Below, piece by piece: positions 14,080 through 64,000 of a stretch of 64,000 nucleotides of DNA (the stretch's first letter is position 1; every line of letters starts with the position of its first letter). The stretch lies in IMG/VR virus record IMGVR_UViG_3300029736_000004; one strand, written 5' to 3'. The notes beneath the pieces were generated by a model. That model did no database searches. It had not been told where the DNA came from and worked only from the letters and a program-made list of their open reading frames with translations. A program made the translations under genes and the position numbers. Source of the DNA: a virus (taxonomy: Duplodnaviria; Heunggongvirae; Uroviricota; Caudoviricetes).

Positions 14080-14184
14080 AAAACACACAGTTGCGCCCTG
14101 GCATTATCGTGGGGTATATTTCTACGGCACCTTAGAAAAACGGGTGCCGGGATTGGAACCCCGGATAATGTCAAAGGCGACACA

Positions 14185-14206
14185 GACGCCGAAAGCGTCT
14201 TTTTTT
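14185..14206 (+). terminator. intrinsic terminator-like hairpin
   Basis: GACGC-CGAAA-GCGTC followed by TTTTTTT. Confidence 0.45.
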
Positions 14207-14224
14207 GTGTCATGCCATCGCGCA

Positions 14225-14330
14225 GCCATACGTAGCGTTTAGCTCAGAGATCAATGGTAGTGCTGGCTGGGCTGCCGAAAGGCAGGCCGGTTCCCTTTGA
14301 CGCCGGTAGTTCCAACCCAGTCAGTGCTAC
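14225..14330 (+). ncRNA. c4-like antisense RNA (immI-type), approximate bounds
   Basis: Contains GGTTCC, CCTTTGAC and GTTCCAA complementary to TTGGAACC and GTCAAAGG found upstream (14151-14177) and over the icd RBS (14341-14383); local hairpins. Confidence 0.4.
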
Positions 14331-14391
14331 CGCCATTGAGATTGGAACCTCACGCGGTAGCTCCTTAACTTAGTCAAAGGAGGCTGCCAAT

Positions 14392-14607
14392 ATGGCTACT
14401 ATCCCCACCCCAACTCATTCTGAATTTATCTGGCGTTTCTATTCCTGCCAAAAACACCTCTATATCTGCGTCATGGCTGCTACCGAAGCAGAAGCGCGCT
14501 CATACCTTCCCGAAGAACCCTGCATTTTTGCTGCTCGCTTCACTCTTGATGCGATGGAGATCCTCAATTACTGGAATCTGCCGATGAACTGCGTGGAGGT
14601 GCACTGA
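14392..14607 (+). CDS. icd: Icd-like host cell division inhibitor
   Basis: 71 aa with EFIWRF motif typical of P1 Icd-like proteins; AGGAGG RBS; stop overlaps ant start. Confidence 0.6.
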   Translation: MATIPTPTHSEFIWRFYSCQKHLYICVMAATEAEARSYLPEEPCIFAARFTLDAMEILNYWNLPMNCVEVH

Positions 14608-15548
14608 TGAATCTGTCCATCTCTCAAAAAGCGACAATGACCAGTATTGAAATCGCGGAACTGGTAGGTAAGCGTCATGATAATGTGAAGCGTACCATTG
14701 AAGTATTAACTAAAGGTGGTGTCATTCAATTTCCTCAAATTGAGGAAATTGAAAATAAACAATCAGTTGGCCCTCGTCGATTTTCCAAGGCTTACATCTT
14801 TGAAGGCGAACAAGGCAAGCGTGACAGTATCATTGTCGTTGCGCAGCTCTCTCCGGAATTCACCGCCCGGCTGGTGGACCGCTGGCGCGAACTGGAGAAT
14901 GCCAGGGGACCGTTAAAATCAAAAGCCGAAATCCTGGCTGAAATGGCGCAAATGCATCTTGAGCATGAACGCCGGATCAACGCTGTTAATGCCCAGGTAG
15001 CCGAAGTATCGGCACAAGTGTCCAAAGTCGCTGAAACCGTCGAGCAGATCAAGAAAGGCAACATACCAGAAGGTTACATTGGCTATCGCCAGTTAGCGGC
15101 GAAATGCGGCCTGACTGAAGCCAAATGCCGCAACCTGGTCAACGCTTACCGGATCCCCACAGATACGCATGAGTTTTTGACTCCCGACGGTTTGCTTGCG
15201 CGACGCTCAATTGTGGCCCTGGCCCCCTTCCGGAAAGCCTTTAAGCAGGTGATGTCGGAGGCAGAACCACGTAACAAACGCTGGTATCATCCCAGGATGG
15301 GGCTATTTCAGGCCATTCACCATCCTGTGCCTGAAAGTCCAAAGGCAAACCTGTCGTTGCATACCGCCAGAGAGAAGATTAAAACAGGGTATGCAACCGT
15401 ATGCCGTCGAGCATCCTGGCCTGAAAGTGTCTGGGTATGGCCCGAAAGAGGCTCACGGAAAAACTGGCGCACCATTCGCGACGGCAAGATCTGTGCGATT
15501 GATTTACAGCCAGAAGATGTAGCAGCGACCGACTGGATTGTTAGTTAA
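14607..15548 (+). CDS. ant: antirepressor (Rha/Ant family)
   Basis: N-terminal SIEIAELVGKRHDNVKR Rha-type motif; translationally coupled to icd (TGATG overlap). Confidence 0.65.
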   Translation: MNLSISQKATMTSIEIAELVGKRHDNVKRTIEVLTKGGVIQFPQIEEIENKQSVGPRRFSKAYIFEGEQGKRDSIIVVAQLSPEFTARLVDRWRELENARGPLKSKAEILAEMAQMHLEHERRINAVNAQVAEVSAQVSKVAETVEQIKKGNIPEGYIGYRQLAAKCGLTEAKCRNLVNAYRIPTDTHEFLTPDGLLARRSIVALAPFRKAFKQVMSEAEPRNKRWYHPRMGLFQAIHHPVPESPKANLSLHTAREKIKTGYATVCRRASWPESVWVWPERGSRKNWRTIRDGKICAIDLQPEDVAATDWIVS

Positions 15549-18874: not shown

Positions 18875-19204
18875 ATGAGTTACAGCAGGCTCGACGATCG
18901 ATGCATTGAAGACGATGTGCTGCGCGCACTATTCCATCAGGAGATGATCAAGCGGGTATCGGAGTATCACTCCGATAATTTCCAGTACACGATAAAAATT
19001 GATGAGGTTTATCGCTCAGACCTGGCGGCCTATCGCGCCTATGGCAACGCTGATTTGCGCTGGGTATTTCGCGTGCTGGTGGGCCATGAGTCAGAAATGG
19101 AAGAAATGCCGGTCGGGACAACGTTAACTCTTCCTGACGCAGCATGGCTAAGAAACAAGATTCGCGATTACGCTGGCTCGGCACCGGAGATAGAAAATGC
19201 CTGA
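18875..19204 (+). CDS. hypothetical protein (109 aa)
   Basis: ORF; overlaps start of next gene. Confidence 0.45.
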   Translation: MSYSRLDDRCIEDDVLRALFHQEMIKRVSEYHSDNFQYTIKIDEVYRSDLAAYRAYGNADLRWVFRVLVGHESEMEEMPVGTTLTLPDAAWLRNKIRDYAGSAPEIENA

Positions 19205-20402
19205 CTTCCTGAAAAATCAGGACGGGCGATATATCACTGACGGCCTGTCCTCTAAGGATTTCACACGCGTATTTGAACTCATCAGGAAAGAGCAAAACCG
19301 CAAACGCCGCCAGGCGCACAGGACACTCACGCCGGGCAGGCTTAGGAATAAATCAGCCGAAGACATTCTTAAGCTGGGGAAAAAGAAAGGCGGCACGTTC
19401 TTTACGCGTGACGATCTGAAAGGCTTCGAAAAGCTGCGAAGCAAAGCTCGCGAAAAATACGACAGCAAGACGGCTGGCATTACATACGCACAACTGGTAG
19501 CGTCCAGCCAGGCTATCGATATTAAGCGAGCAAATAACGCCGTAGACGACGGTTCTGGTATCAAAAGAGCTACGCCCGTATCTCTTCGTCACAATGTGAT
19601 TAATATCCGCGTGGAAGCGTCCGATATATCCGTTCACCAGCACCACATTGTCCGGGTACGTTTTGAAGAATGGGATCAGATGGTCGATGACATCGCAGAA
19701 GACGATAAATCAGCCCTGAAAGTCACAAAATCACTGTGTGCCGGGCGAGTGTCTTTCGATTGTGACTGCGGTCGCCATCAATACTGGTATCGCTACATCG
19801 CCACTGCGGGTAACTTTGCCCTGGCCCCGCCAAAAGAATACGCCTATCCAAAAGTTCGCAACCCTAAGCTGCAAGGCGTCGCCTGTAAACATGTGATCCA
19901 CTCAATGACACGACTACAGTCTGCCAGTTGGCAGATGAGTATTGCTCGCGCCCTGCAAAAAGCTGCAACGCAAGTTGCCTTTGGTGACGATCGCCGCCGC
20001 ACGACAAAACACTTCACAAAAGAAGACGAGAAGGCGTTCAATCGAAACCGTAGCAGCAAAACGAATGTTGAGGCAGCTAAACGTGAATGGAAGCTCTATC
20101 AGAAACGCCAGGCCGCTTTAAGCTCAAAACTGGCAAAGGACAACGGTAAGATCGACAAGCTGCGCGACCAACTGACCAGGGCCAGAAAGTTATCCGACGC
20201 ACAGAAAAAACGGGCAGCGGCAAAAGAAGCTGCTTTGCAACGGGAGAAGCAGAAAAACAAGGAACTTCAGCAACGCCTTGCTGATCAGTTCGCACTGAAG
20301 AAGCAGGCGTTCATTGATGCGCTTGTTATGGCAGGAACACCACCAGCACAAGCCGAAAAGATGTTCATGGCGTATGTGAAGAACAACGTAAAAAATGTAT
20401 AA
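19197..20402 (+). CDS. hypothetical protein with CxC...CxH zinc-finger-like motif and Lys/Ala-rich coiled-coil tail
   Basis: SFDCDCGRHQ...GVACKHV motif; C-terminal 120 aa highly charged and helical. Confidence 0.45.
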   Translation: MPDFLKNQDGRYITDGLSSKDFTRVFELIRKEQNRKRRQAHRTLTPGRLRNKSAEDILKLGKKKGGTFFTRDDLKGFEKLRSKAREKYDSKTAGITYAQLVASSQAIDIKRANNAVDDGSGIKRATPVSLRHNVINIRVEASDISVHQHHIVRVRFEEWDQMVDDIAEDDKSALKVTKSLCAGRVSFDCDCGRHQYWYRYIATAGNFALAPPKEYAYPKVRNPKLQGVACKHVIHSMTRLQSASWQMSIARALQKAATQVAFGDDRRRTTKHFTKEDEKAFNRNRSSKTNVEAAKREWKLYQKRQAALSSKLAKDNGKIDKLRDQLTRARKLSDAQKKRAAAKEAALQREKQKNKELQQRLADQFALKKQAFIDALVMAGTPPAQAEKMFMAYVKNNVKNV

Positions 20403-20603
20403 GTGTTTGCAAGGACATGAATAGTACACTATTATGATGGTGAAGGAATGGTACATGTTGAACCAAACCTTCGAGGATGCAGCAGACTGAAGAAATTCAG
20501 ACATCCCGCAACCAGCTATCATAACAGGTCAAACCAGTTGTGATACTTGGTCAAGGCAAAGTCCGGTAATGGCGTTCTGAATACCAGAAAATAATTTCTG
20601 GCG

Positions 20604-20634
20604 AAGCCCACCTTAAGGTGGGCTTTGTTATTTT
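20604..20634. terminator. terminator-like hairpin
   Basis: AAGCCCACC-TTAA-GGTGGGCTT followed by T-rich tract. Confidence 0.4.
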
Positions 20635-32784: not shown

Positions 32785-34482
32785 GTGAACAAGAACATTG
32801 AGCCAGCTCGTAAGCGCGAGCGCGAGATTATGAATCGGGCGGCAAGCGTCATGGCTATGACCGTCGATCCAACCACTGATGCTGCCGGTAACATGATTGC
32901 CGACAACGAAGTGATGATGGCTAACCTGGAAAAAGCTATCCAGAAAGAGCCTATGTTTGAAGGCGTTGAACCAGAAGCAGCTCGCCAGATCATTGGTAGC
33001 TGGGCCATGTCTATTCATGAATACAAACGCCAGTATGGGCATTATCCGGCAAGCGATGTATTAGCCAACGCCCATGTAGCACTTGAGCGCCTGATGATGG
33101 AGTCCGCTAAAGAGACTCATGAAGGCGCTGGCAAAGCCATGTTTGAATCAGTAGCCAAGGACATGCGCACCTCCGATGGTGTAATGAAGGTTGCACAATA
33201 TGCCGCACTGATCCTGCCTGCTTCTCTCGGCGCAGCCACCAGCGACGCATGTACGTTTATCCCTTGTGATCGTGATGAAACCAATATTTACGAGCTGACC
33301 AACGTTGCTGGTACAAAATTCGGTACATTCGAGCAGGGCGATGAACTGAACATGCAGTCTGCTGGAGTGTATTCGCAGATGAAACGCCTGTACATCCTGA
33401 CCGAAAAAGGAGATGGCAGCAAAACCACCTTCCAGTTTGATATCCAGAACTTCGAAGGCCAGGCCTGCCCACTGCGCCAGGGCTACAACAAACTGCTGAT
33501 TAACCGCAAACCGTCCAAAGTAGATGATGGTGACGGCAACCTGTATTTCAACGACAAAGACGTCAACGGCAACTCTTTCTCTGTGACGGCAAAGGTTCGA
33601 TACGATACCGGCGTTATCGATATCACCTTTAATGAAGCACCAGCAGAAGGCACAGAAATCGCTGTTCAGGTTGAAATCAACATTGAACGCAATCCGAACC
33701 TGATACCTGTCATTAACCAGTCCATGCGCAATTACGCCCTGCGCCCGTCGGAGTACGTGATCGCATCCGAACATACGGTTATGGCTGCATCTGACCTGAG
33801 CCGTGAACACGGACTCGAACTGGCAGCATTGCAATTCTCTGCAATGCGCAACTGGATTTCCCACGAAATCGATATGATGCGCCTGCGCACTCTGGTATTC
33901 CACACCGTTTACGGTCGTGAATTTGATGTGGCACTGCCAGAAGCGCAGAACTACGAGTCGTGGGTTGGTTTAATTCGCCATGTTGTGAACGCGCTGTCAC
34001 AGGAGATGGCTGACCGCACCCTGACTACCGGTATCCGTGGTGGCTTTGCTGGTGGCGATGCTGCTAACTTCCTGCGTTCCTTACCGCCGCAGCACTTCCA
34101 GTTGGCACCGGGCTATGTACAGTCGCCGTACATTCAATACATCGGCACCCTGTTTGGTTCCATTCGTATCTACGAAGTGCCGAAGCCTATCTGCAAACAA
34201 TTCCAGAAATATGGCTACGACTTCGGCCTGGACGACATCTATTTCTATGGTCGTGGCGAAGGCATTGGTAAAGCAGGCCTGGTCGCAGGTGATGCTGTGC
34301 CTGCTATTCCGTATGTCCACGAAACAAATCCAGCCCTGGTGAACCGCACCACTTTCTGGGGCAAAGCAATCAACGATGTGCATCCGCGCAACGGTGAGAA
34401 CTATTTCACTCGCCTTCGCCTGACACGTTCGAAAGAAGGTGCGATTGACATGTTGAGCGGGCAAATCAACGAAAAAAAGTAG
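32785..34482 (+). CDS. putative major head protein (by position upstream of the sheath)
   Basis: 565-aa ORF, GTG start; heads a block followed by Ig-like, sheath and tube genes; assignment positional only. Confidence 0.35.
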   Translation: MNKNIEPARKREREIMNRAASVMAMTVDPTTDAAGNMIADNEVMMANLEKAIQKEPMFEGVEPEAARQIIGSWAMSIHEYKRQYGHYPASDVLANAHVALERLMMESAKETHEGAGKAMFESVAKDMRTSDGVMKVAQYAALILPASLGAATSDACTFIPCDRDETNIYELTNVAGTKFGTFEQGDELNMQSAGVYSQMKRLYILTEKGDGSKTTFQFDIQNFEGQACPLRQGYNKLLINRKPSKVDDGDGNLYFNDKDVNGNSFSVTAKVRYDTGVIDITFNEAPAEGTEIAVQVEINIERNPNLIPVINQSMRNYALRPSEYVIASEHTVMAASDLSREHGLELAALQFSAMRNWISHEIDMMRLRTLVFHTVYGREFDVALPEAQNYESWVGLIRHVVNALSQEMADRTLTTGIRGGFAGGDAANFLRSLPPQHFQLAPGYVQSPYIQYIGTLFGSIRIYEVPKPICKQFQKYGYDFGLDDIYFYGRGEGIGKAGLVAGDAVPAIPYVHETNPALVNRTTFWGKAINDVHPRNGENYFTRLRLTRSKEGAIDMLSGQINEKK

Positions 34483-63546: not shown

Positions 63547-63679
63547 TCAGGCTTATATTCATGCCGTCGTAGCAAATTCTGCGACCGGGTTTAGCAGCCT
63601 GAATGTTAGTGCGGACAACCGCAGATATCCGATATTGCGGTATTTTTGTGTCCGTAAAACCGCGTTACGCCCAAATTAT

Positions 63680-63745
63680 GGTGGGGCGTGATGGGGAGGC
63701 TTCGGCCTGCTGGTTTCACTAACGCCAGTCTGCTAACCCCGTCAC
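63680..63745 (+). ncRNA. second c4-like antisense RNA (approximate bounds)
   Basis: CACTAAC and CTGCTAA complementary to GTTAGTG and TTAGCAG found at 63591-63611 and over the icd RBS at 63760-63798; GGC-TTCG-GCC tetraloop hairpin. Confidence 0.4.
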
Positions 63746-63806
63746 GTCCTGCCACCTGTTTAGCAGCGGGTAGCAGGTTGTTAAACCTGTTAGTGAGGCC
63801 GTAACT

Positions 63807-64000
63807 ATGGTTAATGCCAATCCTTGCTCACGTCCAGAATTCATCTGGCGTTTTCACTCCCTGCAAAAACACTGCGATCACTTCGCAATTGCCGCAACTG
63901 AAAAAGAAGCCCGTTCTCTGATCCCGGATCAGTATGGCGTTCTCACTGGTCGTTTCTCTACTTCCCCACAACCAAACACCAATCCCTGGTATCGCAATAT
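63807..64000 (+). CDS. icd: second Icd-like protein (3-prime partial at window end)
   Basis: MVNANPCSRPEFIWRFHSLQKH... shares the EFIWRF core with the first Icd-like protein; GAGG RBS. Confidence 0.55.
   Translation, partial: MVNANPCSRPEFIWRFHSLQKHCDHFAIAATEKEARSLIPDQYGVLTGRFSTSPQPNTNPWYRN

Follow-up and report, generated by a model that had tools for sequence, protein, structure and literature searches.

Which mechanism controls the anti-repressor operon at positions 14091-15548 of the 64,000-nucleotide (nt) stretch of viral DNA analysed here (IMG/VR record IMGVR_UViG_3300029736_000004, referred to below as the window), and is its recognition sequence a new one? An original prediction had proposed that this locus carries an antisense RNA switch of the phage P1 and P7 immI type, in which a C4 RNA occludes the ribosome-binding site of the icd-ant operon, and that its specificity is new. 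In P1 and P7, ribonuclease P (RNase P) cuts the C4 RNA down to some 77 nt, the cleavage site being a GGW at the base of its long stem; its b' element partly covers the ribosome-binding site while a' adds specificity, and a 4-nt difference suffices against cross-reaction (PMC5320573). Our analysis leads us to the conclusion that 14091-15548 is very probably a module of the immI type, of the isrK/C4 lineage, through which a D6-like plasmid prophage controls its anti-repressor. The conclusion draws on the observed family membership, structure, exact complementarity, covariation of three element copies, and the identity and arrangement of the genes. The C4 switch is a genuine family member, essentially a specificity allele, and is detectable by standard Rfam annotation. 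The elements of the module are the following.

14091-14120, plus strand: putative promoter (-35 TTGCGC at 14091-14096, spacer of 18 nt, -10 TATATT at 14115-14120; predicted start near G14127)
14127-14206, plus strand: IsrK-type leader RNA (Rfam isrK, RF01394)
14127-14147, plus strand: leader hairpin 1 (predicted fold)
14148-14163, plus strand: leader hairpin 2 (predicted fold), whose 8-nt loop holds a1
14153-14159, plus strand: a1, target copy TTGGAAC, exact complement of a'
14170-14177, plus strand: b1, target copy GTCAAAGG, exact complement of b', single-stranded in the leader fold
14184-14206, plus strand: intrinsic terminator (stem AGACGC/GCGTCT, loop CGAAA, seven T; outer stem GACAC...GTGTC)
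14250-14337, plus strand: C4 antisense RNA gene (Rfam C4, RF01695)
14256 to about 14334, plus strand: predicted mature C4 RNA, beginning GGU, with ends inferred from the annotated 77-nt P1 C4
14256-14271 with 14316-14331, plus strand: C4 closing stem, 16 bp (predicted fold)
14272-14285, plus strand: C4 hairpin 1 (predicted fold)
14286-14307, plus strand: C4 hairpin 2 (predicted fold)
14294-14301, plus strand: b' recognition element CCTTTGAC, in the loop of hairpin 2
14309-14315, plus strand: a' recognition element GTTCCAA, in a single-stranded linker
14326-14361, plus strand: alternative a2-presenting hairpin (covariation, 37 loci)
14342-14348, plus strand: a2, target copy TTGGAAC, displayed in the loop AUUGGAAC
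14373-14380, plus strand: b2, target copy GTCAAAGG, overlapping the icd Shine-Dalgarno sequence AAGGAGG at 14377-14383
14392-14607, plus strand: icd-like gene, 71 amino acids (NF033153, similarity to P1 Icd, phrog_1426)
14607-15548, plus strand: ant anti-repressor gene, 313 amino acids, with an N-terminal Rha domain (phrog_63, Pfam Phage_pRha)

Over its whole length (model positions 1-87 of 87) the Rfam C4 model matches 14250-14337, scoring 77.1 bits where the gathering score is 45 (E = 2.4e-13, computed over the whole window), and the model of isrK, an Hfq-binding RNA, matches 14127-14205 (positions 1-77 of 77) with 62.7 bits against a gathering score of 50, covering the first target copy (a1 and b1) together with the terminator. 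On the same leader the c4-a1b1 model (RF03163) reaches 22.4 bits versus a gathering score of 46.7 (E = 0.0017), aligned in register with the isrK hairpins; judged by these matches, the leader would work like a1b1 but belongs to the isrK sequence lineage. When folded alone, the C4 RNA has a minimum free energy of -46.5 kcal/mol (z = -5.0 versus shuffles), and its minimum-free-energy and centroid structures are identical, with the closing stem enclosing two hairpins. The consensus fold of 43 diverse family members, including P1, Gifsy-1 and both C4 copies of the window, has the same structure, with compensatory changes in 18 of its 28 pairs. The predicted 5' end GGU agrees with the GGW RNase P site described for P1/P7, and a GCCA tail follows the stem. 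RNA folding and a covariance-model search, the two computational checks suggested along with the original prediction, both speak in its favour.

The recognition elements were located by sequence search. The a element TTGGAACC is present at 14153 and 14342, the full direct repeat around a1 and a2 being GATTGGAACC, and the b element lies at 14170 and 14373, so that both repeated sense elements stand where they had been reported. The second b copy reads GTCAAAGGAGG and is followed 8 nt downstream by the ATG at 14392; the placement of the icd ribosome-binding site at this copy is borne out by the overlap of b2 with AAGGAGG. Of the complements, CCTTTGAC has a single occurrence in the 64-kb window, at 14294, and GTTCCAA lies at 14309, both between the target copies; since the order is a1 b1, then b' a', then a2 b2, nested antiparallel pairing is possible with either target copy, as had been expected. 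A third complement claimed with these two, GGTTCC at 14289, has to be withdrawn as a recognition element: it is part of the conserved hairpin-2 frame GCCGG/UUCC and stays constant where the a-element changes from TTGGAAC to TTGAGAC. A terminator scan found the hairpin (stem at 14184-14200, then seven T) that separates b1 from the antisense element, again in line with the original prediction. Among 5000 dinucleotide-preserving shuffles of 14127-14392, two separate triples of an element, its reverse complement and the element again, each of at least 7 nt, arose once, and an 8-mer triple of this kind arose three times.

The recognition elements were compared across 14 close relatives (mean column identity 96%), a set that includes E. 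coli plasmids, IMG/VR contigs, D6 and the second locus of the P1-like phage RCS47. Within C4, the variable sites in this set are one stem position (G-U/G-C), 2 nt of b' and 2 nt of a', and both changes in a' and in b' are mirrored by a complementary change in each target copy. The a'-a2 and b'-b2 pairings taken together have 100% of cells paired with four pairs changed on both sides, and the same values hold for a1-a' with b1-b'; a1-a' alone gives 100% with 2 pairs changed on both sides. In the control with the partner slid by 1-3 columns, pairing was 30-57% and no pair had changed on both sides. Every possible combination of a {TTGGAAC, TTGAGAC} with b {GTCAAAGG, GCAAAAGG} is found, and each of two upstream backbones carries three of them:

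Window: a TTGGAAC, b GTCAAAGG
D6: a TTGAGAC, b GCAAAAGG
RCS47 second locus: a TTGAGAC, b GTCAAAGG
L055 (handle of this analysis for one of the relatives): a TTGGAAC, b GCAAAAGG

On both upstream backbones, the a alleles are distributed independently of the b alleles in the alignment of window 14120-14400 with its 13 relatives. As the copies are interleaved (a1 b1 b' a' a2 b2), swapping one allele needs several short conversion tracts or repeated coordinated mutation.

A broader sample was obtained by searching IMG/VR with the conserved hairpin-2 frame, a' and b' being left free, which gave 106 distinct loci with about 60 a'/b' combinations. For each element, the mean length of the longest exact complement in the flanks was compared between cognate and swapped loci:

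a1: cognate 6.8 nt, swapped 5.0 nt
b1: cognate 7.2 nt, swapped 5.1 nt
a2: cognate 6.8 nt, swapped 4.0 nt
b2: cognate 8.1 nt, swapped 4.4 nt

The element order is correct in most of these loci, and the end of b2 typically lies 7-11 nt ahead of the start codon.

The two downstream genes fit the immI type. The icd product matches the NCBIfam model NF033153 (phage_ICD_like) with 49.4 bits (cut-off 25), is 63% identical to P1 Icd (E = 6e-28) and matches phrog_1426 at 3.7e-41; the ant product matches phrog_63 "anti-repressor Ant" at 1.5e-60 and Pfam Phage_pRha with 37.5 bits (cut-off 29.9). The icd stop codon overlaps the ant start codon as TGATG. Together with the C4 and isrK matches and the compensatory a/a' and b/b' changes, the Icd and Ant homologues confirm the P1/P7 c4-type layout.

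Upstream of the leader, the -35 TTGCGC is invariant and the -10 is kept as TATATT or TATGCT in the 13 relatives, whose upstream DNA is otherwise unrelated. The c4-a1b1 model also aligns in register at this promoter, its positions 1-13 corresponding to the -10-to-start region of the P1 promoter P1c4, and the putative promoter at 14091-14120 is positionally homologous to P1c4. A generic promoter scan reported no plus-strand promoter upstream of the module, because the -35 matches the consensus at just 3 of 6 positions.

Compared with P1 and P7, the module belongs to the same Rfam family and follows the annotated P1 layout (promoter, a1 b1, C4 with b' a', a2 b2 with the ribosome-binding site, icd, ant), including the overlap of icd stop and ant start and a specificity set by a few nucleotides of a' and b'. 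The recognition elements differ: the a element is TTTGACAG in P1, TTTAGCAG in P7 and TTGGAAC in the window, and the b element is GTTAGTG, GATTGTG and GTCAAAGG, respectively. The window's leader is isrK-type instead of c4-a1b1-type, and its Ant is Rha/KilA-type, unrelated to P1 Ant1/2. Over 1.7 kb the region shares 96% identity with E. coli plasmids of some 90 kb and 88.6% with phage D6. The gene order ref, orf85, c4, icd, ant, pmgF recurs in D6 and in D6-like plasmid prophages (e.g., pYU39_89), and the module itself is 93.6% identical to that of D6; by these similarities we assign the window to a D6-like (P1-related) plasmid prophage. Each D6 element (a = TTGAGAC, b = GCAAAAGG) is 2 nt off the window's, and as both differ, heteroimmunity at this module is predicted. 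An ImmI-related region with c4 antisense RNA, icd and anti-repressor homologues, and a second c4-icd region, have been described for D6-like plasmids (PMC6799933).

A second module is likewise present in the window, at 63553-63830, where it runs off the window end. Its C4 (63674-63759) scores 70 bits and its leader (63553-63605) passes the c4-a1b1 model with 53.9 bits; it is 95.5% identical to P7 and 93.8% to P1, and is of the canonical P1/P7 type. It is a natural hybrid that combines the a element of P7 (TTTAGCAG) with the b element of P1 (GTTAGTG). The second module of D6 carries the P1 a-element with a different b, CTTACG. Duplex energies computed for the two window modules were -24 to -34 kcal/mol for cognate and -13.5 to -17 kcal/mol for non-cognate pairs, crude values in which intramolecular structure is ignored, and the two C4 modules are predicted to be orthogonal.

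How new is the specificity? It does differ from those of P1, P7 and D6, and to that extent the original prediction stands. It is, at the same time, one of the approximately 60 a'/b' combinations, and the identical 88-nt C4 RNA is found in 61 of the 288 complete E. coli records carrying this C4 lineage and in 61 of 321 PLSDB plasmids from E. coli and Salmonella. The literature searched contained no experiments with this a/b allele. An exact search for the 33-nt b'/a' core among GTDB species representatives gave 0 matches, which carries little weight, the element residing on plasmids of represented species. The specificity of the window is therefore one allele in a large natural series and not a new kind of element. 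The earlier interpretation was essentially right and its novelty overrated, because the identical RNA is widespread and c4/icd homologues of D6-like plasmids are already in the literature.

We propose the following mechanism. Transcription would begin near 14127 at the constitutive-looking promoter, and many transcripts would end at the terminator at 14184-14206, yielding an IsrK-like RNA of about 80 nt with a1 and b1. Read-through RNA would hold C4, and RNase P, by homology with P1, would cut it at the 5' end of the long stem to release a stable RNA of about 79 nt. Acting in trans, C4 would pair through its a' linker GUUCCAA with a2 and through its b' loop CCUUUGAC with b2; because b2 overlaps the Shine-Dalgarno sequence, icd translation would be blocked, and because the ant start codon overlaps the icd stop codon, ant would rely on icd translation. 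With icd off, no anti-repressor would be made and lysogeny would be kept. Rho-dependent termination, or polarity, was reportedly described for untranslated P1 icd by Biere, Citron and Schuster in 1992. The a1 and b1 copies of the leader would be competing targets, and the short leader RNA could counter repression as IsrK does in Gifsy-1; the leader of about 80 nt (14127-14206) is probably a decoy target for C4. Of this scheme, the cutting by RNase P, repression in trans, the coupling through translation and Rho, and the part of the leader as a decoy are inferred from homologues.

Several points weigh against this mechanism. The promoter is weak by consensus (3 of 6 positions in the -35) and was overlooked by the generic scan. 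The P1 C1 operator ATTGCTCTAATAAATTT, searched with up to 3 mismatches, gave 0 matches in the whole window; as a D6-type C1 may recognise another sequence, this absence does not exclude repressor control. The genetics of Gifsy-1 are explained by a structural switch in cis no less well than by a repressor that works purely in trans (PMC4825925), and a covarying alternative hairpin at the C4 3' end, described below, makes the P1 textbook model incomplete.

On the subject of C1 operators, P1-like carriers of the same isrK/C4 module (RCS47, designated L006 here, with L075, L086, L119 and others) have an operator TTGCTCTAATAAATTG about 60 nt upstream of the -35, while the window and D6 are without an operator of the TTGCTCTAATAAATTG type upstream of the module. 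The second immI locus of RCS47 sits between pacB and c1. Its homology with the window is limited to 14126-14540 (leader, C4 and 5' part of icd) and then gives way to a different ant gene, so that the module is mosaic.

The alternative hairpin joins the C4 3' end at 14326-14333 (GCTACCGC) to a segment that we call c2 at 14354-14361 (GCGGTAGC), between a2 and b2, with an inner 3-bp stem (14338-14340 with 14349-14351) whose apical loop AUUGGAAC presents a2; the leader hairpin shows a1 in the same loop sequence. In 37 diverse loci, 95.8% of cells are paired versus 25-55% with a slid partner, 9 of the 11 pairs have changed on both sides, and values as high as these arose in none of 500 shuffles. 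This hairpin and the lowest 6 bp of the C4 closing stem are mutually exclusive. It is not a by-product of the closing stem, because the helix reaches into the unpaired C4 3' tail. The comparison covered the Rfam models and the P1 annotation, and the hairpin is absent from both.

The terminator is similarly conserved in position. An explicit stem search, which misses some evident hairpins, counted a hairpin with a U-run between b1 and C4 in at least 80 of the 97 loci searched, and the P1/P7-type module has one as well; a detector based on the minimum-free-energy fold of a 30-nt prefix overlooked many terminators, that of D6 included, and was dropped. In 63 of the 97 loci the terminator is surrounded by an outer complement of 4 nt or more, and where this outer stem is present, the U-run lies in an internal loop of the read-through RNA. 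The outer stem differs by lineage (GACAC..GTGTC in the window, GGACA..TGTCC in P1/P7, CGAT..ATCG in others). The sites are at 14176-14216 and 63610-63656 in the window and in most of the loci numbered L009 to L128, and the terminator within an outer stem is common to the isrK-type and P1-type lineages.

A broader and tentative reading, which we consider rather unlikely as a whole, is that the module is a three-state RNA device conserved across the whole C4 family and going beyond the textbook P1 switch. The terminated leader (IsrK) would be a target mimic that titrates C4, and the C4 3' end would alternate between the RNase P-competent closing stem and the a2-displaying hairpin; because that hairpin would sequester the RCCA-like tail, repressor maturation would be coupled to target exposure. 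The independently assorting a and b elements would form a combinatorial immunity code that would let two orthogonal modules coexist in one phage-plasmid.

A counterpart of the leader is IsrK of the Salmonella prophage Gifsy-1 (NC_010392; locus L129 in our numbering). On its minus strand, Rfam places isrK (34240-34316), c4-a1b1 (34277-34329) and C4 (34131-34214) adjacent to one another. Published work on Gifsy-1 established the compensatory pairs G28-C162 and G31-C159, showed that short IsrK activates translation of the anti-repressor AnrP in trans, that the RNA STnc1160 of about 80 nt is processed from read-through transcripts and that AnrP needs translational coupling, and likened the locus to P4, not to P1 c4 (PMC4825925). 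The pairs G28-C162 and G31-C159 map exactly into the Gifsy-1 a1 (UUGGCGU) and a' (ACGCCAA). Since isrK, c4-a1b1 and C4 are found together there, we take IsrK to be the a1b1 leader of a C4 module, and STnc1160/"orf45" to be its C4 RNA, on the strength of this correspondence. A statement that isrK is an a1b1 leader was not found in the literature searched, in which C4 and isrK are given side by side (APSE phages; GenBank LC710660). Gifsy-1 thus resembles the window in its isrK leader with terminator followed by C4, in an a1-a' pairing that is proven there, and in its anti-repressor output. It differs in having no icd gene, the coupled upstream orf45 overlapping C4 itself, and in being an integrated lambdoid prophage of Salmonella with a = UUGGCGU, whereas the window is a plasmid prophage. 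The AUG conserved at the C4 5' edge corresponds in Gifsy-1 to A107, where orf45 has its first AUG. Nucleotides 119-121, at which orf45 mutations have been published, belong to the C4 closing stem, so that these mutations may act via RNA structure as well as via translation.

Gifsy-1 also provides support for a rival explanation, which we regard as possible though improbable, namely that control is exerted mainly by the full-length transcript switching its own structure in cis, as has been suggested for isrK-orf45-anrP, and not by a diffusing repressor. In such a switch, a' and b' would pair intramolecularly with a1/b1 or a2/b2, the C4 3' end would toggle between the closing stem and the hairpin that presents a2, and the short terminated leader would activate in trans. 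The alternative structures A and B of Gifsy-1, the trans-activation by IsrK and the compensatory mutants (PMC4825925) favour it, the Gifsy-1 locus being a C4 module by Rfam; so do the strong covariation of the C4 3' end/c2 hairpin and the fact that c2 of the window also overlaps an arm of an anti-Shine-Dalgarno hairpin, although the latter is non-significant versus shuffles (z = -1.2). On the other side, the processed 77-nt RNA of P1/P7 represses in trans and sets heteroimmunity (PMC5320573), and the window, like P1, has a separate icd with its own ribosome-binding site under b2, whereas orf45 of Gifsy-1 overlaps C4. The cis switch complements the explanation favoured here, repression of icd by C4 in trans, more than it excludes it. 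Attenuation after the manner of the P4 CI RNA, in which pairing of C4 with a1/b1 would promote termination at 14184-14206 and occlusion of the ribosome-binding site would be secondary, seems to us unlikely. P4 immunity (CI RNA, seqA/seqC) does share with the module a processed small RNA from the leader of the operon that it controls and target copies both upstream and downstream. The end of b1 is 6 nt ahead of the terminator stem, the terminator occupies this position in most of the 97 loci and in P1/P7, G76-G79 (the end of b1 plus CG) could pair with CGCC of the terminator 5' arm, and the Gifsy-1 authors raised the idea for STnc1160 (PMC4825925). However, P4 CI acts via transcription termination whereas b2 of the window covers the ribosome-binding site, and this overlap of b2 with the Shine-Dalgarno sequence is the best-conserved feature, with complements of 8-10 nt, which argues for translational control. 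Co-expression of STnc1160 left the IsrK effect undiminished in Gifsy-1 (PMC4825925). No antiterminator covariation was seen, the sequences concerned being invariant, and the locus lacks P4-like genes, having icd and ant downstream instead of the alpha operon.

It remains to consider whether the interval encodes a protein of 39 amino acids (open reading frame 14254-14373), equivalent to Gifsy-1 orf45, so that its conservation would be coding conservation. In RefSeq, the C4 gene is annotated by PGAP as the coding sequence of an "ash family protein", with no non-coding RNA feature, in every matching E. coli or Salmonella plasmid among those listed (for example NZ_AP018804, 26331-26418). The name "ash" presumably derives from P4 immunity mutants. 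The 39-amino-acid translation matches PHROG "transcriptional repressor" families, the ATG at the C4 5' edge is conserved with the frame open in 68 of 75 distinct C4 sequences, and orf45 start-codon mutants reduce anrP expression in Gifsy-1 (PMC4825925). We nevertheless consider a coding function highly improbable. A reverse-strand frame is open in 64 of the 75, so that openness does not discriminate; no NCBIfam model matches the open reading frame; the variation obeys RNA pairing (stems and three dispersed copies) and not codon structure; the PHROG matches lie within "proteins" that are far longer and have other boundaries, as expected for open reading frames mis-called over an RNA gene; and the conserved AU ahead of GG also fits the RNase P site. 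The "ash" and PHROG families in question were probably built from such mis-called frames over C4 genes. Elsewhere in the window, Rfam sroH has a full-length match at 20441-20626 on the plus strand (113 bits, gathering score 80), directly after an open reading frame of 401 amino acids at 19197-20402.

By itself, the result correctly annotates a regulatory RNA that is already known, in a phage-plasmid common in E. coli and Salmonella. RefSeq and the PHROGs treat the RNA gene as a protein, which amounts to hundreds of mis-annotated records. A specialist might take up the link between IsrK and a1b1, the a/b alleles with their combinatorial pattern, or the additional covarying helix. The four a/b combinations that occur in nature on a near-identical backbone, and likewise the hybrid of P7 a and P1 b, are a ready-made experiment on how many base pairs the specificity of antisense immunity requires and on whether a and b work together as an AND gate. 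Identification of IsrK as an a1b1 leader would connect the Salmonella IsrK and P1 immI literatures, and the models of both IsrK and P1 could be refined, in ways open to test, in the light of the covarying helix at the C4 3' end.

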